64,000 nt of DNA from the IMG/VR virus record IMGVR_UViG_3300046779_002065, positions 64,276 to 128,275 of that record; one strand, written 5' to 3'. The DNA is from a virus. Of the stretch, positions 35,664 to 59,137 are shown piece by piece; positions within the stretch are counted from its first letter, which is position 1, and the number at the start of each line of letters is the position of its first letter. The translations under genes and the position numbers were made by a program. The notes beneath the pieces were generated by a model. It had not been told where the DNA came from. It saw only the letters and a list, made by a program, of their open reading frames with translations, and made no database searches.

Positions 35664-36245
35664 TTAAATCTCTAGATCATTGTAGGTCTGGAGTTGTTCT
35701 TTGGTTTTCTTAATGACATACTCCTTTGCCTTCTGTTTGCGATAGAGCGCACTGATCTTCAGTGTGTGATCTATCAGCATGTAACGTTTCCAGTTTTCCG
35801 GAAATGTTTTTGCTACTGCCCGTTTGAATTGACGGATGGGAGTGAATCCCCAGAGTTCGTGGTGTTTGAACCTGTATTTGCTGGAGTAGTTGGTGTAGAA
35901 AATCTTTGCAATGTAATTGTCTGATTCCCAATTACGGTGCTGAATGACTTGAAGAAAATCCAGCGTCTTCTTGAAGTCTACGTTCTTTTTCACTTTAGGT
36001 TGACAGGTTCCGATGAACACCGTACCTAATTGCTCAGGTAATTCAATTCCGTCGCGCAGTTCAATGACGCTTTCCCAAATCAGACCATTGCAGTCGGTCA
36101 GGAAGCTTTTGATTTGCTTGTCGCTCAGGTCCCGGAGTTCGGGAACTTCCTTGCGGATGTGGTCATAACAATCTTTATTGAGGGTGTTATAAACGCCTAG
36201 ACGAAATCGAGGAGCTGTGAGGTCTGGTTTTCTTGCTTGTTTCAC
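35664..36245 (-). CDS. HU/IHF-like protein of the crAss structural module
   Basis: 193 aa, basic, GTG start. GIELPEQLGTVFI resembles the IHF beta arm. Confidence 0.6.
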   Translation of the reverse strand: MKQARKPDLTAPRFRLGVYNTLNKDCYDHIRKEVPELRDLSDKQIKSFLTDCNGLIWESVIELRDGIELPEQLGTVFIGTCQPKVKKNVDFKKTLDFLQVIQHRNWESDNYIAKIFYTNYSSKYRFKHHELWGFTPIRQFKRAVAKTFPENWKRYMLIDHTLKISALYRKQKAKEYVIKKTKEQLQTYNDLEI

Positions 36246-36290
36246 AAATATCCTACATTAAAAATTTACGAAAAAAAAGGCAGATTATCA

Positions 36291-37535
36291 TCACTTTCTA
36301 ATGATGTGGTTGAACTCTCCCAGCTTACCAAGGGAGTCATCATGTAATTCAAGAATTGCGGCGCGTTTATTTCCGGTAAACTTATTGTGATAATGCCAGT
36401 AGTCGGTGTGACTGAGCGATGGTAATATTTTAATCGAAAAACCATGTTCTTCATTTTCGGTTACGTATTCAGTTGTTTTCTTTTTATGAAAGTGTCCGGT
36501 ATATAATGTGCGGTATTGACTGTTTCCCCATTCTCTTGGAAACTCTGTAGCATACACCAGTGGTGTGTCTTTTTTGGAAACATCCCCGTGCTCAAAGCAA
36601 AACATGTTTACACCGACGGTGTGAACTTTACGTTCAGCATACTCGACATCAAAAGAGATATTTGGAATACCGTGAAAAGATCTGCTCAATGCATGCACTA
36701 AATGGTAGCTGGAGAGACGGTCGTGATTACCTGGAATGTACAGAACCTTCAGATGAGAAACGTATTGCTGGATTTGCTGGATAGCTTTGTGCATCGCCTC
36801 AAAAGCAGCTAGGTAAACATCTTGTGCAGGTGCAGCATTGTCAACAGGAGTTCCTTTGGTTGTAGTACCCAGGAACGTATCCATGTTTAAGAGGTCTCCA
36901 CCTACCACAAAGATAAGTTCTTTGATGTGATAATTGTTTGCACCTTTTAACAAAAGATCATGAATGCAACGCTGGAGTAGTTCATCCATATCTTCGTTAC
37001 CAGGTTTACCAAAGTGCATGTCTTGCAAAGACAGAACTCCAGTAACAAATTCCTTTGTTTCATTGATATATTGAGTTGTTTTAGGTGGGGTGTACTTTGG
37101 AAGTTTGACCTTAGAAAGTTGTTCAAGAAAGTTGCTCTCTGCAATCTCATGTCCAGGAAGACGGGAGACCAGTGCGCTGACATGCCAGGCACCTGCTTTC
37201 TCTTTATTCCAGTACTGTGACAATTTCCACTGACTGGTGTCAATTTTTAATAACCTGATAATATCTTCAGCACTGCGCGGCTGCACTGCCGTTACAACAG
37301 AGAGTCTATTGGTTCCTTCTTCAAGGTTACAGAAGTCTTCGCTAACAAGATCTTTATCAAATTTTTCATTACCTTCTAAGTAAGCATAGATGTGCTTCTT
37401 AAAATGCTTCATCATTTTCAATACCTCATGTTTCTTTTTGATATAATCCGAAAGAGGTAATCCTAAAATCTCTGCACCACGTTCATTGGAGGTTTTTTTG
37501 CAGATGATTTTGTAAACTTTTATGTTTATATGCAT
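36291..37535 (-). CDS. Calcineurin-like metallophosphoesterase
   Basis: All five motifs are present in order: DMH, GGD, GNHD, HGD, GHFH. Confidence 0.88.
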   Translation of the reverse strand: MHINIKVYKIICKKTSNERGAEILGLPLSDYIKKKHEVLKMMKHFKKHIYAYLEGNEKFDKDLVSEDFCNLEEGTNRLSVVTAVQPRSAEDIIRLLKIDTSQWKLSQYWNKEKAGAWHVSALVSRLPGHEIAESNFLEQLSKVKLPKYTPPKTTQYINETKEFVTGVLSLQDMHFGKPGNEDMDELLQRCIHDLLLKGANNYHIKELIFVVGGDLLNMDTFLGTTTKGTPVDNAAPAQDVYLAAFEAMHKAIQQIQQYVSHLKVLYIPGNHDRLSSYHLVHALSRSFHGIPNISFDVEYAERKVHTVGVNMFCFEHGDVSKKDTPLVYATEFPREWGNSQYRTLYTGHFHKKKTTEYVTENEEHGFSIKILPSLSHTDYWHYHNKFTGNKRAAILELHDDSLGKLGEFNHIIRK

Positions 37536-37598
37536 AAGGTCTTAAGCAAAGTTCGACTGAGAGTGCGGCGGTTGGTTGTAATTGTTGATTAAATGTTG

Positions 37599-37631
37599 AA
37601 AAATACAAACCCCGATATTTCTACCGGGGTT
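37599..37631 (-). terminator. Intrinsic terminator
   Basis: Minus strand AACCCCGGTA-GAAA-TATCGGGGTT followed by TGTATTTTT. Confidence 0.75.
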
Positions 37632-37689
37632 GCATAGCAGGGTCATTTTCAGGTAAACCAACAAACCAAAAACTTCCCCGCACGATTTT

Positions 37690-38307
37690 TTATGAAATGG
37701 ATGTCACGCAGCTGATACCTACATTGTAACTATCGTTTATTGGACTCGATAGGTTTGCTGGTCCGGCTTCAATAACCAGTTTGTAGTAGGTGACGCCTGG
37801 AGTACGCGCAATATTTAAGATACCGTTTGTTGCTCCAGACAAGGAAGATCCCCACGGACCTGCATACGAGGCGACACCTTTCCATCCGGTAGTTGCTACC
37901 AGGTTGCCGCTGTCGTCATAGACGCTAAAGCGGTTAGGTCTGTCTACCGCGTCGTAGCTGATGTTGAGCTGTGTAATGGCAGGATTAAAGCAGTCAATGT
38001 ATATCGCAGGATAGCTGTATGCATTTGAACCGGTGTAGGAATTGCTAAGGGATGCTCCGCACTGTACAAAAGAATAAGGAGACGCAGAACTAAACGCAGT
38101 GACTGCACTAAAGACACCATCAGCACAAGAAGCTTCAATGGTACCCTCATAGCTGACACCGTTTTCCAATCCAGTAATTTCCACAGGAGAAGAGGTTGGG
38201 TATGGAGATACCGTGTTCCAGGCGGTTGCACCCACTTTTCGATATTTAACCCTGTATCCTCCTGAAGGTGCAGGAGAGGGTGCTGTAAATGATACCGTTA
38301 ATTTCAT
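37690..38307 (-). CDS. Fibronectin type III domain virion protein
   Basis: GYRVKYRK...ITGLENGVSYEGTIEASC FN3 signature plus a second beta domain. Confidence 0.75.
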   Translation of the reverse strand: MKLTVSFTAPSPAPSGGYRVKYRKVGATAWNTVSPYPTSSPVEITGLENGVSYEGTIEASCADGVFSAVTAFSSASPYSFVQCGASLSNSYTGSNAYSYPAIYIDCFNPAITQLNISYDAVDRPNRFSVYDDSGNLVATTGWKGVASYAGPWGSSLSGATNGILNIARTPGVTYYKLVIEAGPANLSSPINDSYNVGISCVTSIS

Positions 38308-38311
38308 GATG

Positions 38312-38875
38312 TTATGATAATGAGGCGGTCACCGAAGTCGGAGTGCCACAGGTTGGAGCGACTGTTAGAAAATCAAATGTTGCGCAGTTTGTCAATGCAT
38401 ACGTTCCGACATAAGGAGTAATCATTATAACGTACACTGTCGCAGCTGTCAAACCCGTAAAGGTGTGACTGACTGTAGAACCCCCGGTAAATGGTCCGGT
38501 TTTATCTACGCTTGTGATTAACGTCAAGGGAGTCGTATTTGCGTATAATTTGATATTATACTTGGATACTTCCCCTCCTAAATGAGGAAACGATACGGTA
38601 GTAGATGTCGATGTTGGTGCGTTTGACGGGGTCACACACGTTTGATTAATTCCTTCTACATTGAAGGAAGCAATTTCACCACCGCTACAAAGGTTAACCA
38701 CCCGGAACTCATAGACCGTGTTATCAGCCAGTCCCGTAATAGTAGCAGTGTTCACGGTAGCACTGACAGTAGAAAACACTGTCCAGGATCCACCAACAGA
38801 TTTAACGCGGTATTCAACACGCTGCCCGGTAGAGGTTCCACCGGCAGGAGTCCAGTTTATAGTTGCACTTGCCAT
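38312..38875 (-). CDS. Tandem FN3 domain virion protein
   Basis: INWT...ITGLADNTVYEFRV and FTGLTAATVY. Confidence 0.78.
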   Translation of the reverse strand: MASATINWTPAGGTSTGQRVEYRVKSVGGSWTVFSTVSATVNTATITGLADNTVYEFRVVNLCSGGEIASFNVEGINQTCVTPSNAPTSTSTTVSFPHLGGEVSKYNIKLYANTTPLTLITSVDKTGPFTGGSTVSHTFTGLTAATVYVIMITPYVGTYALTNCATFDFLTVAPTCGTPTSVTASLS

Positions 38876-41042: not shown

Positions 41043-41244
41043 TCATAACGGGTAAATCACAGCTTCCAGTAGACATGCAAAGAGGATTTAATTCTTTGTT
41101 ACGCAGGTATAGCTCACGCAGATCCGCCAGGTAATCCAGATCATATCGGATTGCACACTCACGCAACCCAAAGCGTTGGGATTGCAATTTTTTGTATGCG
41201 CTGGCAGCAAATGCTGAATCGAGTTTTTCCTGTAAAGCGTCCAT
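41020..41244 (-). CDS. Hypothetical protein
   Basis: 74 aa, co-oriented and overlapping its neighbours. Confidence 0.55.
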   Translation of the reverse strand: MDALQEKLDSAFAASAYKKLQSQRFGLRECAIRYDLDYLADLRELYLRNKELNPLCMSTGSCDLPVMSEWIQTL

Positions 41245-41420
41245 TATCTGGTGAATGTCTTCAGTGTAATTTTATCGAGGTCTGAGAGGTTTACTGTTTT
41301 CTTTGCTGTAATTGAATCTTCGTAAGAACTGATACAATTGGAACAAACTTGTTTTCCGTCGGTTGCTGTTCTTAATTGACAGCTACATCCTAGCTGGGTG
41401 TTGCAGTTTTGGCAAGTCAT
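41244..41420 (-). CDS. Small Cys-rich protein (58 aa), absent from the ORF track
   Basis: MTCQNCNTQLGCSCQLRTATDGKQVCSNCISSYED... It fills the gap exactly, has a TAAAACCAAT leader and a TAATG coupling to the next gene. Confidence 0.75.
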   Translation of the reverse strand: MTCQNCNTQLGCSCQLRTATDGKQVCSNCISSYEDSITAKKTVNLSDLDKITLKTFTR

Positions 41421-41435
41421 ATTGGTTTTAATCGG

Positions 41436-42083: not shown

Positions 42084-42105
42084 GTATATAAAAACCAACC
42101 GAGGT

Positions 42106-43443
42106 TTAGTGGAGAGTAGATGCGTCAGTGCAATCAATTTTGTTTCCGCCAAGTTCAGTGAACTTAGTGAACCAAGTTTCGAATGAAGGAACGAACGCAG
42201 TTACTACGATTCTGATCAAGTACTGATCGCTGTCCAACATACCGCTAGGGTTTGCGTTGCGAGGTACACTGTGCAAAATGTAGTATGATTTATACTGGGT
42301 GCTACGAGACACGTCTGTCAATGAAGTATCGTTCAATACCTCACGCATACGTGGATCTTGCTGCCAAGGTTCTTGCAAGTAACGTTTTTGTAAGATCAAC
42401 TCACGCAAAACTGTTTCACCTAAACCGTCTGAAATCACAGGAGCTTGAGTTTCTGTTACACAGAAAGCCAAAGAGCTGCATGGGTTACCAGACTCATCTA
42501 CCACTGAAGGATAGATTGCAATTGGTGCAACTTCCACGAAGTCTTTAGGATCGAATGAACAATCACCAAAGGTAGTGTCTTGGTAAGCAGCAGTCAAGTC
42601 CATGTGAGCTTGTACGTTCGGGATGTTACCTTGAACTGTTACAGGAACATACGTACCAGTAACTGCTTCAGTCCAGAATACTACAGCAGCAGTGGTACCA
42701 GCAGCGGTTGCCGCTTTACCAAAAGTGATAGTAGTTCCAGAAACGTTTGTTACAAACGTGTTGTTTGGAATACCAGTACCAGTCACTTTCTGACCAATTA
42801 CAATACCAGTAGCAGAAGCTACCACCATTGTAGTACCAGCGTTAGACCAGGTTGCAGTAGTAGCAGCAGTTTTGCTGTATACTTTTGGAGACACAAAGTT
42901 TTTCAAAATTGGGTCTGCAGCGATTTGGTCTTTCCATGCCAAGAAGACAACCGTAGGATCCACGATGTCAGTTGCAGTTGCGCAACAACCAGTGAAACCA
43001 TCTAATGTCTTGTACACGTTGTGACTCAAGAAACGCAACGCAGGCGATCCTTTGATGTCCAAACGTAAACGGTACGTTTTGTTACAAGATAAGCTGTAAG
43101 CAGCGTCACAACCAACTTTAACGATTTGGTTCACAGCAGACTGAGAGTCTACTTTGTAGAAACGACTAACAAAACGAGGACTGATACCTTTAGTTTTGAT
43201 AGACTCTTTGTAGCCACCATGGAAAGGTCCGATTTTGTCTACAGTGTGGAAGCTACCTTGTGCAAGGTAAACTTGTGGAATGTACGCACTAGGCGTAGTA
43301 GCAGGAGCATACGAAGTGTTTGCTTTAGCATCAAAGATACCAATTTGACCAGCTGTCAAAGTGCTTGATGCTTGACCCGCAGTAGTTAAAAATCCAGAAG
43401 TACCGATCAGGACTTTCTGAAATGCGTGTGGAAAATAAGACAT
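42106..43443 (-). CDS. Abundant structural protein (auxiliary capsid/decoration-type)
   Basis: 445 aa with strongly biased codon use and its own terminator, located in the head-tail module. Contains a Thr/Gly-rich beta insertion. Confidence 0.55.
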   Translation of the reverse strand: MSYFPHAFQKVLIGTSGFLTTAGQASSTLTAGQIGIFDAKANTSYAPATTPSAYIPQVYLAQGSFHTVDKIGPFHGGYKESIKTKGISPRFVSRFYKVDSQSAVNQIVKVGCDAAYSLSCNKTYRLRLDIKGSPALRFLSHNVYKTLDGFTGCCATATDIVDPTVVFLAWKDQIAADPILKNFVSPKVYSKTAATTATWSNAGTTMVVASATGIVIGQKVTGTGIPNNTFVTNVSGTTITFGKAATAAGTTAAVVFWTEAVTGTYVPVTVQGNIPNVQAHMDLTAAYQDTTFGDCSFDPKDFVEVAPIAIYPSVVDESGNPCSSLAFCVTETQAPVISDGLGETVLRELILQKRYLQEPWQQDPRMREVLNDTSLTDVSRSTQYKSYYILHSVPRNANPSGMLDSDQYLIRIVVTAFVPSFETWFTKFTELGGNKIDCTDASTLH

Positions 43444-44607: not shown

Positions 44608-45624
44608 TTATTGGTTCCAGTATTTTTCCAAGTTTTTGCTTAAGTCAATTAAGATTTCTTCGTTCAAAGGATTCTTTAAGTACTCAGTCACATCACTTGG
44701 GTTTTTACCTAGTACAGTGCTTGACTTCATGTGGTAGATAAATCCATCACCACGGAATGAAATCATTTTGTAGTAAGTAGAGTCCTTAACGATTGCACGC
44801 AATTTCAATGTTTCCATATCCAATCCGGCTACGTCCAGGAACGTTTGTGCTGCACGACGTTTGTTGGTCTCGATAGACTCACCATTGATGTAGCGGTCCA
44901 TGATGTCATACATAACATCGTTTGGCGTATTCTTACGGTATTGTGCGCTGTTAGGATCGATTACCTTACACACATACATAAGTTTATTAGGATTCTTGTC
45001 AAAGAGCTTCTGCAACTCAGCCAACGCTTTGTTACGTACTTTCTTCCATTCTGTTTTGGTTCCTGCAGTCTCCTCGTATTTGTCAAGGTAAAACTTAGGT
45101 GGTTTTGCCATCGTACGCGCGTGCTCAAGACTCTTAGCAACCAGGGAGAATCCTCCAGCTTCAATTGCTTTAAGTTTGATCAGATCGTAGGGATCTTTTG
45201 CCGGATCCAGGTACAGCGGATCATTACTCATTCTCAAGACAATTTTGTCCCAGAAATCACCGTTGTCCGGACGAAGCACTTTAACCTTATTCCAGAACTC
45301 TACATCAGTAACATCGATGACGTTTGATGCAAGCATTTTCTCAAGTGTCATAACCAGCGCGCGGATCTCTTTGATCTTCGCTAGTTTTTCTTCTTCAGGA
45401 AGCATCTGGATCTCAGGAGCGAACTCGTTCAGTCCAGTTACATACTGCTTAATACCGTTTCTTTCCAAACATGCTAACTGTTCTTCATGGAAAATTCCAT
45501 CATACAGTGCAAGGTTGTACTTTTCAAGACCCATGTTTGTAGAACCTGCTTCTACATAAGGTCGGATTGCTAATGCTGCCCCTCGCTTCGCGAAGGTTCC
45601 GCTTTCTACTATTGTAACGCTCAT
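44608..45624 (-). CDS. Conserved crAss-like protein downstream of the MCP
   Basis: 338 aa, assigned by synteny. AAACCAACCAACCA leader. Confidence 0.6.
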   Translation of the reverse strand: MSVTIVESGTFAKRGAALAIRPYVEAGSTNMGLEKYNLALYDGIFHEEQLACLERNGIKQYVTGLNEFAPEIQMLPEEEKLAKIKEIRALVMTLEKMLASNVIDVTDVEFWNKVKVLRPDNGDFWDKIVLRMSNDPLYLDPAKDPYDLIKLKAIEAGGFSLVAKSLEHARTMAKPPKFYLDKYEETAGTKTEWKKVRNKALAELQKLFDKNPNKLMYVCKVIDPNSAQYRKNTPNDVMYDIMDRYINGESIETNKRRAAQTFLDVAGLDMETLKLRAIVKDSTYYKMISFRGDGFIYHMKSSTVLGKNPSDVTEYLKNPLNEEILIDLSKNLEKYWNQ

Positions 45625-45655
45625 TGGTTGGTTGGTTTATCGCGTATCGCGATTT

Positions 45656-45701
45656 GCGAACTGCAGTGACTCGAACACTGTGGACACCGGCTGTCAGTTC
45701 A
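45656..45701 (-). ncRNA. tRNA-like element lacking an anticodon arm
   Basis: TGAACTG-ACAGCCGGTGTCCA-CAGTG-TTCGAGT-CACTG-CAGTTCG-C: 7-bp acceptor stem, 5-bp T stem and canonical T loop. Confidence 0.6.
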
Positions 45702-45738
45702 GGATATTTGCCGGGTAGCGAACTACCCGGCGTATCCT
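45701..45738 (-). promoter_or_regulatory. Strong hairpin after the MCP stop (no U tract)
   Basis: GCCGGGTAG-TTCG-CTACCCGGC, extended by AGGATA/TATCCT. Confidence 0.6.
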
Positions 45739-45749: not shown

Positions 45750-47366
45750 TTACAAAGAAGTTCCAGTAACTGGGTTTCTCATAACAATCTTCAACACCTT
45801 CGTAGGGTCTTTCACCCAGATCGCTGGCATTGTTTGCGTCATGAACACTCTGTAACCGTTGAAGTTTCCAGAGCTGTTGAAACCTTGTGTACGTCCCATG
45901 TAGTCCATGGTACCGTTTTGGTAGAACCATTTCAATTCGTTATCCCATTTCAACTTCAACAAGTAGATGTTGTCGTTGGTGTTGTCGGTGATATCGAACA
46001 CGATGAAGTTGTAAGAAGACAATGGGAAACCATCAACGATTGGGTTTTCAATGTCGTTAGTATGAACGTTGTCAAACGCTGGGTTCAATACAAATTTCAC
46101 ATTCGCTAAGAACGGAATAGTGTAAGAAGTGAACGCAAAACCGAAGTTCAAGTCCATTCCTTTACCAGTGATTGCCCCGATGTCTGCAGCCTGTACAACC
46201 AAACCTGCACCTAAAGCTTCTTTCTTGATCGCTTCATTTACCATCTTCATACCAGCCATACCAGTTTGAACAATGATTTGACGCTTTGGATCTGGTCCTT
46301 TGAACTCAACCTTACCATTGTAGAAGTTGAAGATTTCAGAACGGAACAATTCCAATGTGAAAGAACCTTTGTTGTACACACGTTTGAACGCGTTGTCCAA
46401 CTGCTTCCAAAGACCCACTGATAAGCGGATATCATCTGGACCATCTTGCTTAACACGTCCACCTTGTCCCCACATTAAGTAGGTCTCGATGTCTGTAGCA
46501 ATCTTAGTCAAATGAGCTGCTTCCAAGTTGGTTACGAATGAACGAGACAAGTTTCCGTTTTCGTAAGCTTTACGAACGAATTCTTTACCCATCTTCTTAA
46601 CCATGTCGTCGATGCTGGTGATTGAAGGATCAACACTCTTGTCGAAGTTTCTCCAGATCTCTGTTACAGGAACAGTACCATCAGCATTCATTCCACCTTT
46701 CATCATCAACTCAGCACGAGAAGAGATTGAATAGTGTACGTGAGCTTCCGCACCGCCTACGAAGTTGTAGAACTCACGGAAACCTGCAGAGATTTCTCCG
46801 ATGTCAGAGAATTTCTCTCCATATTCACCACGAGCAGAACCTTTACGGAAATACTTAACACCTGGTTTTAAGTAGTTCTTGTCGAAATACTTGGTGTTGT
46901 CGTTGTTAACAATTTGAACTGTGTAGATGAAACCGTCACCAGCTGGAAGAATGTCTTCAGCAGTGATGTACAATTCCACACCATTGTATTTGTCGTAGGT
47001 GATGATATCACCGTGTCCGAAAATACGTTTGTTCATTTTGATTTTGAAAGAAGTACCATCAACACCTGGAGTGCTGTTAGTTTCCACGTCCTCAGTGATG
47101 TACGGAAGATCCTGTACTACAGGAACCTGCCATTTGTACTCACCACGAGCGTTGTCAACCATGATGGTGTTTTTACCACCGAATGATGCCATCTGGTAAA
47201 GAGGCATTTCTACCTTTTGTACCATTGCCCACAAGTCTACCGGACCTAAATCCATAGGTTCGCTTGACTTAAGCATGTTTACTAAGTGGTAGGAGTCCAA
47301 GTGTGACTGCACCTTGTACTGGGTGTCACGCAAGAACAGACCGTTGTTTAATACTGGAGTTGCCAT
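45750..47366 (-). CDS. Major capsid protein
   Basis: 538 aa with strong codon bias. Portal-X-MCP order and the C-terminal IWVKDPTK motif match crAss MCPs. Confidence 0.88.
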   Translation of the reverse strand: MATPVLNNGLFLRDTQYKVQSHLDSYHLVNMLKSSEPMDLGPVDLWAMVQKVEMPLYQMASFGGKNTIMVDNARGEYKWQVPVVQDLPYITEDVETNSTPGVDGTSFKIKMNKRIFGHGDIITYDKYNGVELYITAEDILPAGDGFIYTVQIVNNDNTKYFDKNYLKPGVKYFRKGSARGEYGEKFSDIGEISAGFREFYNFVGGAEAHVHYSISSRAELMMKGGMNADGTVPVTEIWRNFDKSVDPSITSIDDMVKKMGKEFVRKAYENGNLSRSFVTNLEAAHLTKIATDIETYLMWGQGGRVKQDGPDDIRLSVGLWKQLDNAFKRVYNKGSFTLELFRSEIFNFYNGKVEFKGPDPKRQIIVQTGMAGMKMVNEAIKKEALGAGLVVQAADIGAITGKGMDLNFGFAFTSYTIPFLANVKFVLNPAFDNVHTNDIENPIVDGFPLSSYNFIVFDITDNTNDNIYLLKLKWDNELKWFYQNGTMDYMGRTQGFNSSGNFNGYRVFMTQTMPAIWVKDPTKVLKIVMRNPVTGTSL

Positions 47367-47395: not shown

Positions 47396-48634
47396 TTATC
47401 GTTTGAAGAAGCTTTGTGTAGGACGTTGTATGGTTCTACGTGCGGGTTTGTTGTTATCGTCTTTGTCTTCTGTTGGGTTAGAAGAAATACGATTTTGTTG
47501 TTCAGTCTTGAGTTTTCTCACGGTGTCCTGAGTAGCTGCATTCTGACCTTGTTGTTTGATCTGCGCTTTGTACTCATCCGGACTGCTGAGTAACCACATG
47601 GCTTCAGCGATTAATCCGTAGTTCGGCTCAACGAACTGGTATTTTTCCAGGAGGTGACCAAGCAGGTTGACTTTCTTTCCGCTGATGGAGTCATACTTGG
47701 GAGTGGTCATTTCAGTGAAGATGAACGCCTGTGTTTTTTTGTCCAACTTGATTCCGTTGATCTCACCGGCTTTCACAGTCTCGTACACATTGTCTACATA
47801 CTGCTTCATGGCGTCTTCACGTTGCTGCTTCATTTGCTCTTGCTGAGCTAGCTGTGCCTGAACCATTTGTTCCTGCATGCGGTCCAACTTTGGTTTGAAC
47901 CCGCCTGCTTTCTTTTCAAGCACACCCATTTCATTCCACTCCTGGATTTGTTCAGCAATCTCATCTTCGGTTCCGAACTGAGTTGCCATCAGGTAGTGTC
48001 TTGCAATAGCGTCTGCGTCATTTTGTGGGTCCAGTGAACGAGACTCTTCGACAGAGGCAAGTGCACGGAACAAACCTCTTAGGTCTTGTCCACCGTCAGC
48101 AACATACTTGGCAGCATATTGTAATTCCTGGGGTAATGATTCAAAGAACTCTTTTGGAGTTTGCTCACGCACCTGGCGTTCGCGCTCCTGTATATTTGCT
48201 TCCAGAAGTTCTTCCCAGTCTTTCACTGAGTACTCTTCCAGTTTCTTTTCATCTTCAAAAGGAATGATGGTTCCTTTTTCGATTAGTTTGGAGAAGGTCT
48301 CTACCAAACCGCTTTTGTCAATCTTCTGACGACCAGGGGTTTTCTTTTGTCCTTCGGCATCGTCATCGTCATTATTTGTCAGGTCATCTAATACAGCGTC
48401 TGCATTGATTTCCTTTGCTTGCTTCTTCTTGTCAGGATCCGTGTTTGCATCATCATCGTCATTGTCATCATCGTCTGGATTGTCCAGGAAGGATGTGTCA
48501 GTCTGGGTGTTCGAAAACATATTTGGTTTCTTGTCCCCTTCATTTCCGGTGATGATGTCTTCCGCACCTGGTAGTGGTAAGAAGTCATCAATGTTCACTA
48601 CGTCTTCGGTAGTTGTAGTCGTGTTGGTTGTCAT
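47396..48634 (-). CDS. Putative scaffolding protein
   Basis: 412 aa with an acidic disordered N-terminus and coiled coil, between portal and MCP. Confidence 0.55.
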   Translation of the reverse strand: MTTNTTTTTEDVVNIDDFLPLPGAEDIITGNEGDKKPNMFSNTQTDTSFLDNPDDDDNDDDDANTDPDKKKQAKEINADAVLDDLTNNDDDDAEGQKKTPGRQKIDKSGLVETFSKLIEKGTIIPFEDEKKLEEYSVKDWEELLEANIQERERQVREQTPKEFFESLPQELQYAAKYVADGGQDLRGLFRALASVEESRSLDPQNDADAIARHYLMATQFGTEDEIAEQIQEWNEMGVLEKKAGGFKPKLDRMQEQMVQAQLAQQEQMKQQREDAMKQYVDNVYETVKAGEINGIKLDKKTQAFIFTEMTTPKYDSISGKKVNLLGHLLEKYQFVEPNYGLIAEAMWLLSSPDEYKAQIKQQGQNAATQDTVRKLKTEQQNRISSNPTEDKDDNNKPARRTIQRPTQSFFKR

Positions 48635-48765
48635 AATCTTGGTTGGTTTGCGACCGAGGTCTACATTAATAATCTACATATTTTTAAACGTTCGAGAGTT
48701 ATCTGTAGACCTTTATTTGGACAAACCCGTACTATATCGCTATGAAAACCATTTTGTTGATAACA

Positions 48766-48823: not shown

Positions 48824-51550
48824 CTATTCTTTCTTAGTCTTGCTGTCGAATCGGTTCTTGTTTTCACGGGCGACCTGCACCTGTTTGTCTGCTATCTCCT
48901 TGCGGATTTGCAGCTCTTCACGCTTTAACTGATTCTTAGCTGATTCGGAGTTCTGACGATTGACGTTCTCTTCCCGGCGCAGGTTAATATCCTCCTGGTC
49001 TTTACGACGCTTGTCCAGGATATCCAGCGAATCCAGGTAATCATTCTGAGCGTTGTTGTTAAGGTCCTTCATGGCACCAAAACCAGCAGAACGTACTTCT
49101 GCGACATCCAACTCATTCTGACGATCCAGAGCTTTCTGTTCAGCTTCCCACTGAAGCTTCTGTTGCTGACGTTCACTTTCTGCCTGCTGACGCATTTCTT
49201 CCACCTGTTTAGCAGATTCCTGCGCTTGTTGCTGTTGCGCCTGCACCTTGGTTTCAACGTCTTTAAGCACATGTGTAATTTCAGCCATGCTTTCTGCTTT
49301 GATCAAGTTACCCAGATCATAGATCGATGCACCGCTGGTATTGTTACTCATTGCCAGCTGACGAATGTTTTCCATCACCTGACGCGTATTTACTTTCGTA
49401 GTACAGAAAATATTGAAGTCACGCATTAACAGGTCGGTTCCATTCATCTGGAAGTTAACCCGTTCGTCCATGGTGGTCATGTATTGCAGACGAACGCTTG
49501 GACGCTTGCTGTGGTAATACTGCGCCAGATCCGTACGCATCTGATGTACGCGCGGCATGAGGTATTCACAGTGCTGTACAAAGTACATCTCGGTTTGAGA
49601 ATAACTTTGGTTCATTGCCTGTTGCACGCCAGTAGCTGTTTCCTGTGCATTGACTGCACCCATACGTTGCGGAGTGATACCAATGGTTTCAAATGCTTGT
49701 TGCTTAAAGTAGTTTGCCAGCTGGATACGACTCATCAAACGCTGAGACTGCTCCAGGTTAAGTACCTGGTAGTGCTGGAAATTCAGTGCATTCTCTGTAT
49801 TGGTAATCGATGTATCAAGCGGTAACATCTGGAAGTCCTTCATTGCCACGTATGCTTTGGCAAAGTTGTTACGACCCCAGTCCTCTCCCATAGAATGCTT
49901 AGGAAGTGCGTTCTGATCCATCATGATCACCGTACCGAGTTCATCGATCAGGATGTCTGCAATCTGGTTATTGACCATGTTGTAGCCGATCTGGTAGGGT
50001 TTCATCTTGTCGACCATGGAAACACTCTTACTGTTACGATCTGAGAATACAGATCCCTCTACAGGAAGTTTGCAACCGTATAAGGTAAAGTCACCCTTAA
50101 ACTGGAAGGGTAACGGTTTTAAGTTGAGGTAAATAGGTTGCACCCCATTAACGTCTGCAGAACCATAGAAGCTTGGACGGTTAGGTCCGATCTTAATACC
50201 GCTCCACACCTGGTTAATCCAGATCCAGTCAATGTGCTCACCAAAAACCAGTGTCTCTGAATTTTTGTTCTTATTGAGCGTGGTATTGTAAATAGGTTTC
50301 TCTGTGATCTTGTAATCTTCGGTAACTACTTCCTGGATGACCATACCATCTTCCTGCACTTTTGTCAAGTGACCCACCATGCGCTGTGATTTCCAGTACA
50401 CGGTCGTAACTCGTAACATCTGGTAGGTACCATAGTCAAACAAGTCTTCACTTTGTGAGGTGATCTGCGTAATCAAATCGTCTCCCATGTTCAGGAAACT
50501 ATCCGTTACGCTCATGAACTGACGCATTCCCAAAGACGGCATGTTGGTGTTCCACTCGTAGGAGCGCGTAGCGTCATAGAAGGAACCATCATTTTGCTGA
50601 CCCAGGATTGGATAACCAGCTGATTTTACCGGGTAGATGTGTTCGAGTGCCTGGAGTTGTTCATCATCCATCATGTAACCATACTTGTCGATAATATCGC
50701 TCAGGGTGGCGAGTTCTACTTTACCTACCCAGTTACCTTGAGACACATAACGTACATCGGGAGATTTGTGGTAGAACGTTAATACAGGATTCCAAAGTTC
50801 CAGTTCGTAGTCTTCTTCGAGCATACGGAAGTGCCAGAACTCGCGATCTGTCACCAGCATGTCGCGGAACCCGGTAGTTTCCAATTCTTTTAAATAAAAA
50901 CGTTCTTCGTCTACCTTGTGCTGATGGGTTGCCCACTGCTCATACATGGAACGGTAGGTCTTGCTGAAAAACTGCTGGATCTCCGGTAGACTTTTTACCT
51001 GCTGGTCCATCTGCTCCTGGAACTGTGGATCATTTGGATCCGCTCCCTGAGCAATCATATTTTCCATTAACTTCTGCTCCGCCTGTGCAATAAGGTAGTC
51101 CTCAATCATAGCACGTTTCTCTTCCATCATTTCATTGTAGGACAAATCGTCCACAGCACGGTAGAGAATACGGTCAGTGCGTTTTGCAAACTCACCTACC
51201 ATTACGTTGACTACGTTGGGAATAATCGGATAGAACTTTAATTCCAACGCACTTTGATCTTCTTTAGTCAGAATCTCAATGAGTTCAGCTTCTTCATTAT
51301 CGTCACTCACCAGGTAGTCTGTTTTATCAATGAGACCATTGGCAAGTTTGTAGTTCTTCAGCAAGCGGCGTGCATTACGACGCAATTGCTTCAAACCTTG
51401 AAGTTCCAACCAGTCGACGTTCCACGCCGCCCATTCATCATCTTTATCCTTTTGCGGTAAAAACTGAACAGGTTGGGTTATTGTACCCATCTTGTTGTAA
51501 TCTGCTTTTGCACCGTTCTTGAGTTGCAGTGCGTTGTATATTTTAGGCAT
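48824..51550 (-). CDS. Portal protein
   Basis: 908 aa. YPIIPNVVNVMVGE, MKPYQ and IGITPQRMG motifs and a C-terminal coiled-coil barrel. Confidence 0.88.
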   Translation of the reverse strand: MPKIYNALQLKNGAKADYNKMGTITQPVQFLPQKDKDDEWAAWNVDWLELQGLKQLRRNARRLLKNYKLANGLIDKTDYLVSDDNEEAELIEILTKEDQSALELKFYPIIPNVVNVMVGEFAKRTDRILYRAVDDLSYNEMMEEKRAMIEDYLIAQAEQKLMENMIAQGADPNDPQFQEQMDQQVKSLPEIQQFFSKTYRSMYEQWATHQHKVDEERFYLKELETTGFRDMLVTDREFWHFRMLEEDYELELWNPVLTFYHKSPDVRYVSQGNWVGKVELATLSDIIDKYGYMMDDEQLQALEHIYPVKSAGYPILGQQNDGSFYDATRSYEWNTNMPSLGMRQFMSVTDSFLNMGDDLITQITSQSEDLFDYGTYQMLRVTTVYWKSQRMVGHLTKVQEDGMVIQEVVTEDYKITEKPIYNTTLNKNKNSETLVFGEHIDWIWINQVWSGIKIGPNRPSFYGSADVNGVQPIYLNLKPLPFQFKGDFTLYGCKLPVEGSVFSDRNSKSVSMVDKMKPYQIGYNMVNNQIADILIDELGTVIMMDQNALPKHSMGEDWGRNNFAKAYVAMKDFQMLPLDTSITNTENALNFQHYQVLNLEQSQRLMSRIQLANYFKQQAFETIGITPQRMGAVNAQETATGVQQAMNQSYSQTEMYFVQHCEYLMPRVHQMRTDLAQYYHSKRPSVRLQYMTTMDERVNFQMNGTDLLMRDFNIFCTTKVNTRQVMENIRQLAMSNNTSGASIYDLGNLIKAESMAEITHVLKDVETKVQAQQQQAQESAKQVEEMRQQAESERQQQKLQWEAEQKALDRQNELDVAEVRSAGFGAMKDLNNNAQNDYLDSLDILDKRRKDQEDINLRREENVNRQNSESAKNQLKREELQIRKEIADKQVQVARENKNRFDSKTKKE

Positions 51551-51553
51551 CTT

Positions 51554-51934
51554 TTATAATTTCTTTAAACTGTTAGCATCCACATAACCTGATAATCCGC
51601 CAGATAAAACACCTGTATCTGCTAGTAAGCTGATACCGCCAGGCAGTGTACCTGATGAATAACTCAAACCAGATGCTGCTTCATGTCTGCGAATAACTTG
51701 AGTATTGCTAGGAGGAGGGAATGGAGAGCTTGGTGTCTTTAAAAACTCTTCAATCAATCTTTGAACCATGTCTCTAGGTAATGCATCTGGTTGTGCTTCC
51801 GGAACTGGTGGATTGTTGATTAACAACTCCTGCTGCATAATGGACAGCTCGTCACTGGAGATGTGTCCGTTGTTGAACAATCGTCCCAGGATATTAATGA
51901 TGGTTTCTTTTGGAGAGAGGGTTGTCGTTTCCAT
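51554..51934 (-). CDS. Hypothetical protein between terminase and portal
   Basis: 126 aa, TAATG-coupled to the terminase stop. Confidence 0.6.
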   Translation of the reverse strand: METTTLSPKETIINILGRLFNNGHISSDELSIMQQELLINNPPVPEAQPDALPRDMVQRLIEEFLKTPSSPFPPPSNTQVIRRHEAASGLSYSSGTLPGGISLLADTGVLSGGLSGYVDANSLKKL

Positions 51935-54150
51935 TAGCGAAGGTTCTTATACGGATTGCGTTTGACTTTGTATTTCTCGTCGACACCAGGTCTGTATCGC
52001 TCGATGTTACGAAAGGGGGACATATTTAATTTACTCATATTATTTGACATTTGTGCTTTATTAGCATCTTCATATTCTACTTTTTTTGCATTACCTCTAT
52101 TTGACTGCTGCACTTTTGCAAATGCAATCAATGCACAATAAGCAACTAACCTATCGACGTTCATACCTTCACGGTATGCTTGCATCTCTTTGCATATCAT
52201 TAAATCAGGGATTCGTTCAATACCGTAGCGCACTTTTTTAATGTTACCCTCGGTATCAACCTCTTCATCAATCTTTTCACTTAAATATTGAATACCGTAT
52301 TCAAGAAGGTTTGTCTTAAAGATTGTTCCTACGTTACGCCATCCGTAATCCTGGAACACGTTGGTATTGCTACCTAAATCTTTGAGGAATGCAATCTGGT
52401 TTTTAGGAACCAGGTATTTTTGTTTACGTCTGCGAATCATGTGCTGAATAAATCCGGTAACGTTATTCTCGCACACGGTCCATGCATTGTATGCTTCGAT
52501 CAAGAGTTCACAGAGTTCATGGGTATCATTGATGTCATCAAACCTGCCACACCAGGTAGCAACAATCTTGTCCTGTTCAATGATGTGTTCAATCGTTCCA
52601 TCCTGTTTGTGAATGACACGTTCCAATGGATTTTTGTAAATAATCAGTGAACACAGTGAATCACTGGTGGTGGTTTTACCGTCACGCACCGGGTCCATAG
52701 AGGCGTAGTATGTTCCCCAGGGTGCGTCGGGTATCGGACGTTCGTACATCTCGATAGCACCTTCCTTGTTTTCGGTTTTAGGAGAGATCGGAAATTCCCG
52801 GATGGGAAGCTTGCGGGTATTCTTAATGACTACTTTTCCCTGGTCGTTGCGTTCCAGCTCCACGTTTTCGCTGAAATATTCTTTTTCCTCGATGCGTCTA
52901 AGTTGGTTGCTGACAAGATGTTGCGGAAACACACTTTGCTTTCGATACGCAAAAGCTTCTTCAATATTGGTCGGTTTTTGTGAAATACGAAGCTGGTAGT
53001 CACCCGGTTTCATCTTACGTTTCCACTCCTCCCGTTCAGCTTTGATCATGCGCAGAGCGTCTTCTACCTGGGAGTTACCGTAGGCATCGATGCAGGGAAG
53101 CATACTCCACTGCTCCGGGATAAACAACCCGCACATACCGATAGAACCTTTAGCGTCTACCAGGTTGGTTTCTACTGCAAGAATGTCTTTACTGTCTGGT
53201 TGAAGGATTAAATCTTTGAGCGGATCACACTGCTCCAGATCACCCACTGATCCTGCCACGGCAAACATCCCGGTATACACCATACCAGACTTGAGAGCTG
53301 GAAGCAGGTACTCCAGTGTTTCGTTCATCTTGGGAGCAATACCTGCTTCCTCGTGAAAGAAAAACTTACACGGACCACCGACACCATTGGTTGGATCTTT
53401 ATCCAGGGACAGACCAATGAGTACGGATTTGAGACCCACGTCCTTTTTTCGACCACCGGTGTTAACCTCAATCTTTTGTTCCCAGTTTAGTACTTTGTCC
53501 GGGTTACAGGGACGATACCAAGCAGTATGGGTGTTAAGGAAATTTCGGTATTCTTCCAGGAAACGCCAGGTACCTTTTTCGTTGATGTAATCCTTTAGCG
53601 ATCCTGCCATCTTGTTTACAGCACCTTCTTCAAACCAGAAGATGTTGATAATCTTTGCAGCGTGGTAATAGGAAGAAGCAATCTGACGCTTTTTAAGAAT
53701 AGCTACGTGTTTGTAACTCCATTCAGCGAGAGCTTCATAGAGCTGCATGTGGTACTGCGCATCCCGGATATCGGCAAACGTGAACTTACCGACCTCTTTG
53801 TTGTAGATCGGCAGAAAGTTTAACCACATGTAATAATCCCGGTTAAGAAACCAGCTCTGACCTTTGAGTCCCTTTACAATGATTCCTTTGCGGCAACGAT
53901 TTTTCTGTTCGTCCCAGTAGGTCATAAAGTCTTTAGAACGCACCGGTGCAATACAATACACCCCTTCTTTACGAAAGCGTACACCTTCAGCGTTAAATAT
54001 TTTGGATCCTTCGTCAAAATCGTATTGACCAGGTTCCTTCCAGATGCTCCACAGAAACGCTACAAAGTCTGCACGGCTGGCAAACGATGTAGTGCTCCAG
54101 CTTTCCGAGACAGCATCATAGGTAGGGATGTCTTGTATAAATTCACTCAT
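51934..54150 (-). CDS. terL: Terminase large subunit
   Basis: 738 aa. Deviant Walker A (LKKRQIASSY), Walker B (FFHEEAG) and nuclease motifs (ASMDP, ENN, DRL). Confidence 0.9.
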   Translation of the reverse strand: MSEFIQDIPTYDAVSESWSTTSFASRADFVAFLWSIWKEPGQYDFDEGSKIFNAEGVRFRKEGVYCIAPVRSKDFMTYWDEQKNRCRKGIIVKGLKGQSWFLNRDYYMWLNFLPIYNKEVGKFTFADIRDAQYHMQLYEALAEWSYKHVAILKKRQIASSYYHAAKIINIFWFEEGAVNKMAGSLKDYINEKGTWRFLEEYRNFLNTHTAWYRPCNPDKVLNWEQKIEVNTGGRKKDVGLKSVLIGLSLDKDPTNGVGGPCKFFFHEEAGIAPKMNETLEYLLPALKSGMVYTGMFAVAGSVGDLEQCDPLKDLILQPDSKDILAVETNLVDAKGSIGMCGLFIPEQWSMLPCIDAYGNSQVEDALRMIKAEREEWKRKMKPGDYQLRISQKPTNIEEAFAYRKQSVFPQHLVSNQLRRIEEKEYFSENVELERNDQGKVVIKNTRKLPIREFPISPKTENKEGAIEMYERPIPDAPWGTYYASMDPVRDGKTTTSDSLCSLIIYKNPLERVIHKQDGTIEHIIEQDKIVATWCGRFDDINDTHELCELLIEAYNAWTVCENNVTGFIQHMIRRRKQKYLVPKNQIAFLKDLGSNTNVFQDYGWRNVGTIFKTNLLEYGIQYLSEKIDEEVDTEGNIKKVRYGIERIPDLMICKEMQAYREGMNVDRLVAYCALIAFAKVQQSNRGNAKKVEYEDANKAQMSNNMSKLNMSPFRNIERYRPGVDEKYKVKRNPYKNLR

Positions 54151-55957: not shown

Positions 55958-55970
55958 AGGGTTGGATTAG

Positions 55971-56041
55971 TTGTCCCGAGAGGATTCGAACCTCTACGCT
56001 CTGAGTCAAAGTCAGATGAACTGCCGTTATTCTACAGGACA
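55971..56041 (-). tRNA. tRNA-Gln(TTG)
   Basis: Acceptor TGTCCTG/CGGGACA, anticodon arm TCTGA-CTTTGAC-TCAGA, T arm AGAGG-TTCGAAT-CCTCT. No encoded CCA. Confidence 0.92.
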
Positions 56042-56044
56042 ATG

Positions 56045-56121
56045 TGGTTGCGGGAGTGGTAATCGAAACCACCTAGTGGAGCTTATGAGACTCCCGAGTG
56101 CACCAGCTCTACTTTCCCGCA
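56045..56121 (-). tRNA. tRNA-Met(CAT)
   Basis: Acceptor TGCGGGA/TCCCGCA plus ACCA, anticodon arm GGAGT-CTCATAA-GCTCC. D arm is atypical. Confidence 0.82.
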
Positions 56122-56153
56122 ATGTATCCCGGATCACTGCTCCGGGAAGGCAG

Positions 56154-56471
56154 TTATTCTTTGGGTTCCATGACAATCTGCGTCTTGGATGCAAGCTTAT
56201 AAAGAGCAATAAACGCATGAGGTGAAAACACCTCCAGCTCACCACCTTTATGTTGCACAATCCAATCACCATGCGTCACGGTCACAATTCCTGTTTTCGT
56301 AGGGATGTCGTACTCGTACTTTTTACCCACTACACGGATCTGATAGTCTGTGTTACAAGCTTCCAGGAAATTGCTTGTGTGTGTAGTATTGTTTCCCGTG
56401 AACTCGTGTGCAGCCACTCGTGTTCTGGACAGTCCACTAGGGACGATTCTACGATACTGGAAATAGAACAT
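56154..56471 (-). CDS. PGDYG-like small phage protein
   Basis: IPTKTG.VTVTHGDWIV..KGGELEVFSPHAFIALY resembles the widespread GDWII..GE.YPC.P..F..TY phage family. Confidence 0.6.
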   Translation of the reverse strand: MFYFQYRRIVPSGLSRTRVAAHEFTGNNTTHTSNFLEACNTDYQIRVVGKKYEYDIPTKTGIVTVTHGDWIVQHKGGELEVFSPHAFIALYKLASKTQIVMEPKE

Positions 56472-56472
56472 G

Positions 56473-56802
56473 TTATTTTACAATTACCCAATCTTCGCTG
56501 AGCATATCTGTTTGAGATGCTAACCATCCCATTAAGATTTTGTCATCAGCCGTTTTAAACAAAATGTAGGGAAGTACATCTGCTGAACCTCCATTGCTTT
56601 CTGCAAACGCTTTTGAATGTTCGTTCCAAAATCCTTCGGCAGGTAATTTTGGTTGACCTTTTCCAAGAGCGATCCACATGTCTTTACCGTTCCAGCCTTG
56701 TCTGGCAACTTTGTGTCCTTGCTTGATCAGACGAATTGCCTGACCAAAGTCAAACTGACCACCGTTTAGAGGTTCTTGATCTGTGTATAGTTCTGTAGTC
56801 AT
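56473..56802 (-). CDS. DUF2829 / Tad2-family anti-defence sponge
   Basis: FGQAIRLIKQGHKVARQGWNGKDMWI...PYI...GWLASQTDMLSEDW. Likely start at 56802. Confidence 0.85.
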   Translation of the reverse strand: MTTELYTDQEPLNGGQFDFGQAIRLIKQGHKVARQGWNGKDMWIALGKGQPKLPAEGFWNEHSKAFAESNGGSADVLPYILFKTADDKILMGWLASQTDMLSEDWVIVK

Positions 56803-56806
56803 AGTC

Positions 56807-57094: not shown

Positions 57095-57097
57095 GGT

Positions 57098-57352: not shown

Positions 57353-57368
57353 AATGTTGGTTTTATGT

Positions 57369-58356: not shown

Positions 58357-58718
58357 AAGTATTTAGATTCTTTGAAAGTCTTTTTGTTGTCTTTTTCTTC
58401 CTCTAGCAACTCTTGCATATTTTGCAAGTTTTGATAATCGTGCTCCTTGTCTTTAAGGATTGCATAACTACTGGTGGAGTTTTGAGGAAGGAGGTATTGA
58501 ATGTATTTACTCAGTTCTTTAATGCGTTTGTCCAGACTCCATGGTTTAACGGTAAAGGTTCCCAGGTTTGGGACCATCACCCTTGGGTGGTCCAGCGTTC
58601 CCAGCTTCTCCCGGATGAAGGACCAATATGCACGCAACATTTTGTCTGACTGTTCAGCAGTCAATCCATGCTTGTGTGCTACAGGTGATATGATGTCCTT
58701 TACTCTGGTAGGTTTCAT
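58353..58718 (-). CDS. HU/IHF-like DNA-binding protein
   Basis: IISPVAHKHGLT...RVMVPNLGTFTVK. Confidence 0.65.
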   Translation of the reverse strand: MKPTRVKDIISPVAHKHGLTAEQSDKMLRAYWSFIREKLGTLDHPRVMVPNLGTFTVKPWSLDKRIKELSKYIQYLLPQNSTSSYAILKDKEHDYQNLQNMQELLEEEKDNKKTFKESKYL

Positions 58719-59101
58719 GGTTCCACACTTAAAAACTGGTAGTCAAGTAAAATAGCACCACTGTCTGAGCGTATCAGTTCAGGAGTGACCATCACTTGTT
58801 TCTTACCTTTCTTTTGTTTGATCATCAAGCCGCGTTTTTCAAGCTTGACAACCCGGTTACGTACGTTTTGCGAACGCTTAGGGAGATCATAAGGGTCTAC
58901 ATCGGTGTAGATATGGTTGGCAGCTTTCTCACAGAAGGCTGTCAAATCCATAGGACCCCACAATGCAAGCAACGTGAGGAACTCCAGATCACTGGGGATC
59001 ACGTGTTCCTTGCGTAGAAACGCAATCTCCATAAGCAACTGACACCGCAACATGTCCTGTCGCGATACCCTTAGCTTTTTTGAGATCTTCGTTACCTGCA
59101 T
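58715..59101 (-). CDS. Winged-helix DNA-binding protein
   Basis: SQNVRNRVVKLEKRGLMIK is a wHTH recognition helix plus wing. Confidence 0.6.
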   Translation of the reverse strand: MQVTKISKKLRVSRQDMLRCQLLMEIAFLRKEHVIPSDLEFLTLLALWGPMDLTAFCEKAANHIYTDVDPYDLPKRSQNVRNRVVKLEKRGLMIKQKKGKKQVMVTPELIRSDSGAILLDYQFLSVEP

Positions 59102-59137
59102 CGGTGTTGGTTTATGGGTCCTGTGTTGGTTTTTCTA

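Follow-up and report, generated by a model that had tools for sequence, protein, structure and literature searches.

A conserved hairpin at the end of a tail-gene transcript in a crAss-like phage: a predicted antisense RNA complementary to the leaders of head-module genes

Introduction

Small RNAs (sRNAs) of the enterobacterial CpxQ, SroC, DapZ and MicL type lie in the 3′ untranslated region (3′-UTR) of an mRNA, directly after the stop codon and in sense orientation, share the parental terminator, and have as their most conserved part a short single-stranded seed directed at the translation initiation regions of several mRNAs. Phages encode related devices: c4 of P1 and P7 and the CI RNA of P4 are small RNAs cut from, or ending, a phage transcript, and their exposed loops pair with short boxes near the ribosome-binding sites of the phage's own genes. 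The nut boxB/N hairpin of phage lambda, finally, forms on nascent RNA between temporal gene blocks; this small structure precedes a terminator, and its loop is conserved while its stem covaries. The present analysis concerns a hairpin with traits of all three, situated before a terminator in a stretch of 64,000 nucleotides (hereafter, the window), which is the second half (positions 64276–128275) of the 128,275-bp IMG/VR virus record IMGVR_UViG_3300046779_002065, a record with direct terminal repeats. The original prediction, made by a model from the letters of the window, had proposed a 3′-UTR sRNA antisense to leaders of the phage's own late genes.

The hairpin shares position, orientation, use of the parental terminator, conserved seed, and kind of predicted target with the 3′-UTR sRNAs. 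Unlike them, it is encoded by a lytic phage and would be aimed at that phage's own head-module genes, its seed is placed in a hairpin loop and not in a linear 5′ stretch, and the RNA itself is predicted from sequence. Moreover, Bacteroidota hosts do not use Shine-Dalgarno (SD) pairing, rely on open A-rich leaders, and mostly lack Hfq. The c4 and CI RNAs serve to maintain immunity or lysogeny, and their targets are neighbours in the same operon, whereas the hairpin belongs to a virulent-type crAss-like phage, lies 8–11 kb from its main predicted targets and beyond a terminator, and would address the structural module; no sequence or structural match to c4 or CI was found (no Rfam match). It differs from lambda boxB in that there is one site per genome rather than several, only 8–20 nt from the terminator, and in that its loop has conserved complementary partners elsewhere. 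In the alignment described below, no conserved linear element precedes this single site; a boxA-like partner was not noticed by eye, although no search for it was made, and an N-like protein was neither identified nor searched for. The hairpin is not a member of any curated RNA family, and by analogy it would work like the 3′-UTR sRNAs, c4, and CI.

Transcription has been studied in one crAss-like phage, phi14:2, with respect to promoters and temporal classes, its middle and late genes being read by the host RNA polymerase from a tripartite promoter (bioRxiv 10.1101/2020.03.07.982082). The passages of that paper on promoters and motifs contain no such hairpin, and the word "terminator" occurs 0 times (bioRxiv 10.1101/2020.03.07.982082). 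Nor did full-text searches of the literature yield a description of such an element for crAss-like phages; supplementary files, including the phi14:2 promoter lists, lay outside this search and could bear on it.

As set out in the following, the hairpin is real: a structured RNA element that is conserved, as is its set of complementary partners. We regard it as probable, although by no means certain, that it acts as a phage antisense RNA tuning the translation of two or three head-module genes.

Results

The hairpin and its terminator

The region in question comprises four features:

37690..38307, minus strand, gene upstream of the hairpin, for an fn3-domain tail/fibre-like protein of 205 aa (PF00041, E = 1.5e-5)
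37637..37681, minus strand, hairpin 1, with outer stem GCGGGG (37681–37676)/CCCUGC (37642–37637) and a weak inner stem
37598..37631, minus strand, intrinsic terminator, AACCCCGG-UAGAAAUA-UCGGGGUU, then UGUAUUUUU
36291..37535, minus strand, gene downstream of the hairpin, for a metallophosphoesterase or "DNA repair exonuclease"-like protein of 414 aa (phrog_704, E = 4.3e-47)

The stop codon of the fn3 gene (TAA) occupies 37692–37690, and the hairpin begins 8 nt further on. The minus strand then reads GCGGGG, AAGUUUUUGGUUUGUUGGUUUACCUGAAAAUGA, CCCUGC, a 5-nt spacer, the terminator hairpin, and a T-run. Between the stem arms lies UUUUUGGUUUGUUGGUUUAC, which harbors the TTGGTTTGTTGGTTT (37669–37655) of the original prediction; its claim of a stem GCGGGG/CCCTGC around this segment, directly before a terminator, was borne out on the minus strand (37681–37598). 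RNAfold gave two adjacent hairpins of −34.9 kcal/mol (z = −3.34; 1/200 shuffles folded as well), and the 10-nt loop of hairpin 1 in the minimum free energy structure is UUGUUGGUUU (37664–37655), the conserved sequence referred to here as the anti-box. The terminator hairpin (37631–37608) has 10 pairs, five of them G-C, and is followed by the tail TGTATTTTTC with a T-run to about 37598, so that 37631–37598 has the G+C-rich stem-loop and U-run of a Rho-independent terminator.

Scanning positions 30000–64000 against Rfam 15 (E ≤ 1) returned only a transfer-messenger RNA (tmRNA), two tRNAs, and a chance snoRNA match, none of them at 37598–37681. A loose scan for hairpins around any TTGGT in the phage's own genome gave many matches, as did shuffled sequences (56.3 on average), and was uninformative. 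The word AATGTAGG was rejected as the hairpin's own promoter in this phage; it lies inside the fn3 gene and is apparently not kept in locus L002. The 8-mer AAACCAAC, the complement of the loop, occurs 10 times in the window where 4.27 are expected (SD 1.95), a number reached by 2/100 shuffles; two copies are on the plus strand (the hairpin site and 42092–42100) and eight on the minus strand. These statistics, confined to the window, are modest, and the hairpin is taken as more than chance because it is conserved in relatives.

Conservation in relatives

Neither blastn of 36200–38400 (no match) nor tblastn of the exonuclease-like protein (matches below 30% identity only, in unrelated phages) gave a close GenBank phage; therefore, a characterized relative could not be used for comparison. 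Relatives were found by searching viral contigs with the exonuclease-like protein, which yielded at least 102 in IMG/VR, the best 80 of which (44–69% identity) were kept. The fetched relatives are referred to by G (genomes) and L (loci) numbers, G000 being the phage's own genome. In 80/80 loci, a hairpin-terminator module is present shortly upstream of the exonuclease-like gene, its syntenic anchor, while the gene on the other side varies from locus to locus. The module consists of a hairpin with the loop (U)UUGUUGGUU(U), a spacer of 8–20 nt that is mostly A-rich, and a G+C-rich hairpin, usually with a U-run. A simple pattern found it in 72 of the 80 loci; the other eight have one-letter variants (UUUAGUUGGUUUU, UUUCUUGGUUU, GGUUGGUUGGU) or carry it further upstream. 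As in the window, the element is in most loci located in a 3′-UTR, that is, downstream of a stop codon, in sense orientation, and ending at the mRNA's own terminator.

Across 64 distinct sequences, the loop columns T..TTGGT (U..UUGGU in the RNA) are invariant, and loop length ranges from 10 to 19 nt. The stems vary by clade yet stay complementary: GGAGG/CCUCC, AGAGGG/CCCUCU, GUCAGG/CCUGAC, GUCACG/CGUGAC, GUAGAG/CUCUAC, GUUACG/CGUAAC, GAGUAAUG/CAUUGCUU, and others, at least 10 compensated types in all. A covariance model (CM) trained on four hairpins of equal length but different stem type matched 36 times at E ≤ 1 in 524,456 bases, always at the expected site and on the expected strand. In the alignment of these 36 hairpins (28 distinct), which is fitted to the model and thereby favours pairing, 90.2% of the stem cells were paired, compared with 49.7% in column shuffles (0/500 reached the real value) and at most 56.1% in slid-partner controls; the covariation score was 0.949 versus 0.216 in shuffles, and all six pairs change on both sides. 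Independently of the CM, the arms around the core were required to form a Watson-Crick helix of 4 bp or more that included no fewer than three G-C pairs; 48/64 native sequences did so, compared with only 781/3638 chimeras joining the 5′ flank of one sequence to the 3′ flank of another. A permissive version of this test (helix of at least 5 bp; native 59/64, swapped 2569/4032) was uninformative because the U-rich loops pair with the A-rich spacers. MAFFT with RNAalifold on the whole module recovered the terminator helix only, as differences in loop length misalign the first stem; all 7/7 predicted pairs of the terminator helix show compensatory changes in relatives. Covariation in relatives, which had been proposed as a check on the original prediction, was thus observed for the stem, around an invariant loop core.

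There is one sense-strand copy of the hairpin in the phage's own genome, where it is the best CM match (21.1 bits; 37648–37671), and one in each fetched relative within reach of the CM. Additional weak matches correspond to leader boxes in reverse complement or run antisense to coding sequence, and the other TTGTTGGT words in the 7-kb loci were all (15/15 inspected) in coding-like sequence as judged by eye, without calling reading frames.

That the double hairpin is an ordinary 3′-UTR structure, which stabilizes or terminates the tail message and has a U/G-rich loop for no specific reason, is the least probable of the explanations considered. It would be compatible with the modest statistics of the window (2/100 shuffles; z = −3.3) and with the amount of loop-leader pairing that composition alone yields. 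A six-position core that is invariant across phages whose exonuclease-like proteins are down to 44% identical, within at least 10 compensated stem types, is not neutral behavior, however.

Downstream of the terminator, most relatives have a promoter-like region before the next gene, of variable length (about 45 to 400 nt). A strongly conserved TAACTTTAYACACCATATAC is found there about 15–25 nt before the ATG of the exonuclease-like gene (L007, L012, L014, L015, L022, L023, and others). It resembles the Bacteroidota −7 promoter element TAnnTTTG and is probably the promoter of the downstream module.

Complementary boxes before specific late genes

The gene layout of the window is crAss-like, which would place the host in the Bacteroidota. 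The order of minus-strand genes starts with the terminase and ends with giant virion proteins of up to 4019 aa (ranks refer to predicted pairing with the loop among 142 leaders; see below):

59106..59132, minus strand, two AAACCAAC boxes before gene 58715..59101 (128 aa), rank 3/142
51934..54150, minus strand, terminase
48824..51550, minus strand, portal gene
48637..48651, minus strand, leader box GCAAACCAACCAAG before gene A, predicted target, rank 2/142
47396..48634, minus strand, gene A (412 aa), between portal and capsid gene
45750..47366, minus strand, major head protein (capsid gene), between genes A and B
45625..45640, minus strand, leader box AUAAACCAACCAACCA directly before the AUG of gene B, predicted target, rank 1/142
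44608..45624, minus strand, gene B (338 aa)
downstream of gene B, minus strand, a Dps/DUF5856-like gene, then several fn3 tail-type genes
42092..42100, minus strand, second site GGUUGGUUU, between the stop of 42106..43443 and a strong terminator (42085–42051)
41422..41429, minus strand, leader box AAAACCAA before gene C, rank 9/142
41244..41420, minus strand, gene C (58 aa), in the same transcription unit as the hairpin

For comparison across genomes, 12 further records, including the five near-complete relatives G001–G005, were fetched whole, and genes were called crudely as the longest ATG frames. Specific orthologous genes are preceded by a conserved box, (A)AACCAA(C), which is complementary to the loop. 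Within −30 to −1, ACCAAC is present in 42/55 distinct gene-A leaders and in 37/53 distinct gene-B leaders, several of the gene-B misses being due to the start finder having chosen an upstream ATG; in most gene-B leaders, ACCAA starts at −5 to −25. The complementary box that the original prediction had placed before many late genes is thus found in the relatives as well, before specific ones. Occupancy by an ACCAA box was tabulated per orthologous late gene across 12–13 genomes:

gene A, 10/12 genomes
gene B, 8/12 genomes
58-aa gene C, 3/6 orthologues
exonuclease-like gene, 3/11 genomes
terminase, 2/12 genomes
233-aa gene, 1/12 genomes
portal, 0/12 genomes
capsid gene, 0/12 genomes
445-aa gene, 0/12 genomes
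184-aa gene, 0/11 genomes
497-aa gene, 0/13 genomes
Dps-like gene, 0/8 genomes

The box is specific to certain genes and does not characterize leaders in general. Compared with coding windows, the −30 to −1 region is enriched in AACCAA(C) in G000–G003 (AACCAAC in G000: 6/142 leaders versus 1/675 coding windows). A general leader motif was rejected: only in G000 and G001 does AACCAA rank with the most frequent leader 6-mers, TAAAAA-type words dominating in G002–G005. The box before 58715..59101 is lineage-specific, since among the listed blastp orthologues (G001, G002, G003, G004, G005), only that of G001 was flagged. Because the distance of the box from the AUG, and from upstream promoter-like words, is variable, a single-stranded RNA element fits better than a positioned DNA site.

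Only 2–7% of leaders contain SD-like words, which agrees with the assumption that SD pairing is not used. Together with the location of the boxes where a ribosome-binding signal would be, before genes of the structural module, this could mean that the box is the primary element, for example, a translation enhancer read by the ribosome or a factor via an rRNA-like GUUGGU, and the hairpin its mimic or decoy (sponge). We consider this quite improbable. The capsid protein, which is the most highly needed one, is never boxed, which argues against a general enhancer, and Bacteroidota 16S 3′ ends are not known to carry GUUGGU. Since A and B flank the capsid gene, the pattern suggests that individual genes are tuned within one message, as opposed to general enhancement.

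Further elements were noted in and near the leaders. A promoter-like word, (TTTTG)TATATTAT(A) or TAGATTAT, lies 25–45 nt before many first operon genes (intergenic regions of G000, G002, G003, and G005); an example in the window is TAGATTAT at 48669–48662, before gene A. It may correspond to the tripartite middle/late promoter as outlined for phi14:2. An ATCGCG-n3-CGCGAT hairpin is located just 5′ of the gene-B box (region 45638–45738); if the message were cut there, leader B would begin right at the box. A 95-aa gene outside the window has a leader (47663–47684 of the G000 genome, locus L312) that folds as CAUAG-AAAAACCAACAC-CUAUG, with the box in the hairpin loop and the start codon in the stem, which could allow loop-loop kissing with the anti-box hairpin. 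In G002 (50391–50410, locus L090), GUUGGUUUAUACCAAC upstream of a 606-aa gene combines box and anti-box in one small hairpin, so that this leader box is self-sequestered.

Pairing between loop and box

When the consensus of 66 boxes is set against that of 64 reverse-complemented loops, the two match over 12 positions, AAACCAACAAAA, including three C/G positions not expected from composition alone. When the phage's own 20-nt loop region was compared with all 142 leaders, the best two partners were the leaders of B (−18.3 kcal/mol) and A (−16.1 kcal/mol), the median being −8.2 kcal/mol. A, B, or C is also among the top five partners in G002, G003, G005, G011, and G014. The loop thus has what is expected of a seed, namely, a conserved single-stranded sequence complementary to conserved target sites. 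In a genome-wide test, in which the number of leaders pairing at ≤ −8 kcal/mol was compared with that for shuffled loops, the real loop stood out only in G002 (0/100 shuffles reached its count) and G014 (1/100).

Outside the core, the loop has only one variable position. In the A-loop phage L072, gene A is preceded by a perfect 13-nt AAAACCAAUAAAA box. C follows AACCAA in 26/45 boxes of seven G-loop genomes (G000, G001, G003, G004, G005, G009, G014), compared with 1/9 boxes of three non-G-loop genomes; the lineages represented are few. In a hairpin-less clade (G006, G010), 1/6 leaders of A, B, or C contain the box, compared with 22/28 in the 10 hairpin-bearing genomes examined. The tail genes of G006 and G010 end in a plain terminator and nothing more; UUUAGUUGGUUUUU before the G006 terminator was rejected as a relocated copy, as it is not intact in the sister G010 (UGGUU) and has no stem. 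G006, G007, and G010 (loci L159, L163, L178) are near-complete relatives without the exonuclease-like gene.

The orientation of both partners is strict. The sense strand carries the anti-box in 80/80 loci and the boxes in leaders A and B, and intergenic sense strands contain AACCAA 79 times versus UUGGUU 28 times (coding, 578 versus 469). This does not agree with orientation-independent DNA sites, one of the outcomes that would have spoken against an RNA. The idea that the hairpin site is the leader of a plus-strand gene was likewise rejected, since only a seven-codon plus-strand frame follows it. In principle, two words that are complementary also make two copies of one duplex site, and the element might thus act at the DNA level, as a duplex site AAACCAAC/GTTGGTTT bound in either direction by one phage DNA-binding protein or as an extruded DNA hairpin (N4-like promoter, origin, or packaging signal). 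For one relative, it is reported that the injected RNA polymerase of the order transcribes only single-stranded or denatured DNA in vitro and has no known promoter motif (bioRxiv 10.1101/2020.03.07.982082). Despite this, a DNA-level role is very improbable: beside the strict orientation, the arms covary while the spacer between them is conserved, which is the opposite of a palindromic protein site, and the site is found at the end of late genes beside a canonical terminator, not before early genes. Whereas N4-type hairpin promoters have a short stem, a 3-nt loop, and conserved flanks and occur in several copies upstream of early genes, the present hairpin has a loop of 10–19 nt and a single copy.

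Other features of the window

A full-length tmRNA (RF00023, 90.7 bits; tag peptide GNVELSEMTFEDAIEFVNEYDMAA) is encoded on the minus strand within 55970–58015. It forms a cluster with tRNA-Gln, tRNA-Met, and tRNA-Thr in the same region and on the same strand, just upstream of the packaging genes.

Discussion

In the model we prefer, hairpin and terminator would form the body of a small phage RNA of about 85 nt (37681 to about 37598). In this phage, the RNA would be released as the 3′ end of the tail-gene transcript, a stable 3′ fragment being the most economical model, whereas in the G005 clade it may be separately initiated; only there, a GTATATTAA resembling the promoter-like TATATTAT motif of the clade is found about 22 nt before the hairpin. 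The stem would serve only to present the single-stranded loop UUUGUUGGUUU, which would base-pair with the box AAACCAAC(AAA) 4–25 nt upstream of the AUG of A, B, and a few others. Pairing with A and B would have to occur in trans because the terminator at 42085–42051 separates the A-capsid-B unit from the hairpin unit; long-range pairing within one transcript, which the original prediction had considered as well, is therefore unlikely for these two genes. Gene C, by contrast, shares its transcript with the hairpin. The host class dispenses with SD pairing and needs its A-rich leaders open, so that loading of the 30S subunit would most likely be blocked by a duplex at −4 to −25. The outcome would be a lowered output of A and B relative to the box-less capsid gene on the same message, that is, discoordinate control within an operon. 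Accumulation of the RNA, pairing in vivo, and repression rather than activation are all three inferred; activation or stabilization of the message may take the place of repression.

Several observations weigh against this model or narrow it. Genome-wide, leaders pairing with the loop at ≤ −8 kcal/mol are mostly no more numerous than those pairing with shuffled loops. In G000, there are 20 such leaders versus 11.8 ± 4.6 (7/100 shuffles reach this count), and the real count is reached by 41/100 shuffles in G004, 72/100 in G005, and 100/100 in G013; between U-rich loops and A-rich leaders, pairing arises from composition alone. At the variable loop position, the picture of loop and box changing together is mixed. 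L228, the G-loop sister of L072, has ACCAAU before gene C too, two C-loop genomes have ACCAAA/U instead of ACCAAG, and the G-loop phages G017 and G018 have ACCAAA before gene A. The common loss of hairpin and boxes concerns a single clade and thus one event, and G010 still has AAAAACCAAAAAA before gene A. The proposed regulon is also smaller than the "many late genes" of the original prediction, which was an overstatement: the exact 8-mer AAACCAAC occurs just 5′ of the ATG in only three genes of the window (44608..45624, 47396..48634, and 58715..59101), and the regulon would consist of two or three capsid-flanking genes and a few lineage-specific ones. As for the second site (GGTTGGTTT, 42100–42092), its location between a stop codon and a terminator was confirmed, but it is without a clear stem and is kept at the orthologous place in only 1/11 other genomes (G001, the nearest relative); it is not counted in the conserved system. 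Among the sequencing runs listed, none of RNA type contains this stretch. It occurs in one run of unrecorded type, and three others (one RNA, two "RNA? probably DNA") contain next to none of its words. Finally, in L003–L005, no U-run follows the second hairpin and the next start codon comes within roughly 15–30 nt, so that the element sits inside a message there and not at its 3′ end.

The module also always travels with the downstream gene (80/80 loci) and is absent where that gene is absent, which a role in cis would explain equally well. The main rival is, accordingly, a cis-acting hairpin bound by a protein on the nascent RNA, which either controls terminator read-through into the exonuclease/virion RNA polymerase block (in a nut/boxB-like or attenuator-like manner) or shields the late message at its 3′ end; the leader boxes would then match the loop incidentally. 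The fixed short distance of the hairpin from the terminator (8–20 nt), its position at the boundary of two gene modules, and its absence from G006 and G010, which are without the exonuclease-like gene, are all consistent with this, and protein-binding hairpins, lambda boxB among them, are likewise recognized by a conserved loop on a stem that covaries. Furthermore, the 5′ part of the loop of one clade can pair with the spacer and the foot of the terminator, a fold preferred by RNAfold in about 10/64 sequences. This antiterminator-like pairing is confined to that clade, however, and absent from the window and from the GGAGG and AGAGGG stem types; moreover, in most relatives, the promoter-like region (about 45 to 400 nt) lies between the terminator and the next gene. 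A protein-binding hairpin also leaves the gene-specific complement before A and B, and their ranks 1 and 2, unexplained. We therefore consider this alternative unlikely, and antisense control of the head-module genes remains the preferred reading.

A conserved RNA with a defined seed and defined targets, shared by about a hundred records of uncultured phages of this clade, makes the timing and balance of translation in Bacteroidota phages, a special question because their hosts work without SD pairing, directly testable via a 6-nt loop core and a 6-nt box. If the antisense model is true, this would be one of the rare virulent-type phages to control its structural genes through an RNA acting in trans, and the box/anti-box pair would be a portable, small, orthogonal translation switch for Bacteroidota. 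More tentatively, and with some doubt on our part, a single "anti-leader" RNA from the end of the tail operon could be a dedicated riboregulator of crAss-like phages in SD-less Bacteroidota, which would kiss the AAACCAAC tag on the messages of the capsid-flanking genes, couple tail transcription to head-protein stoichiometry, and replace SD-based control.

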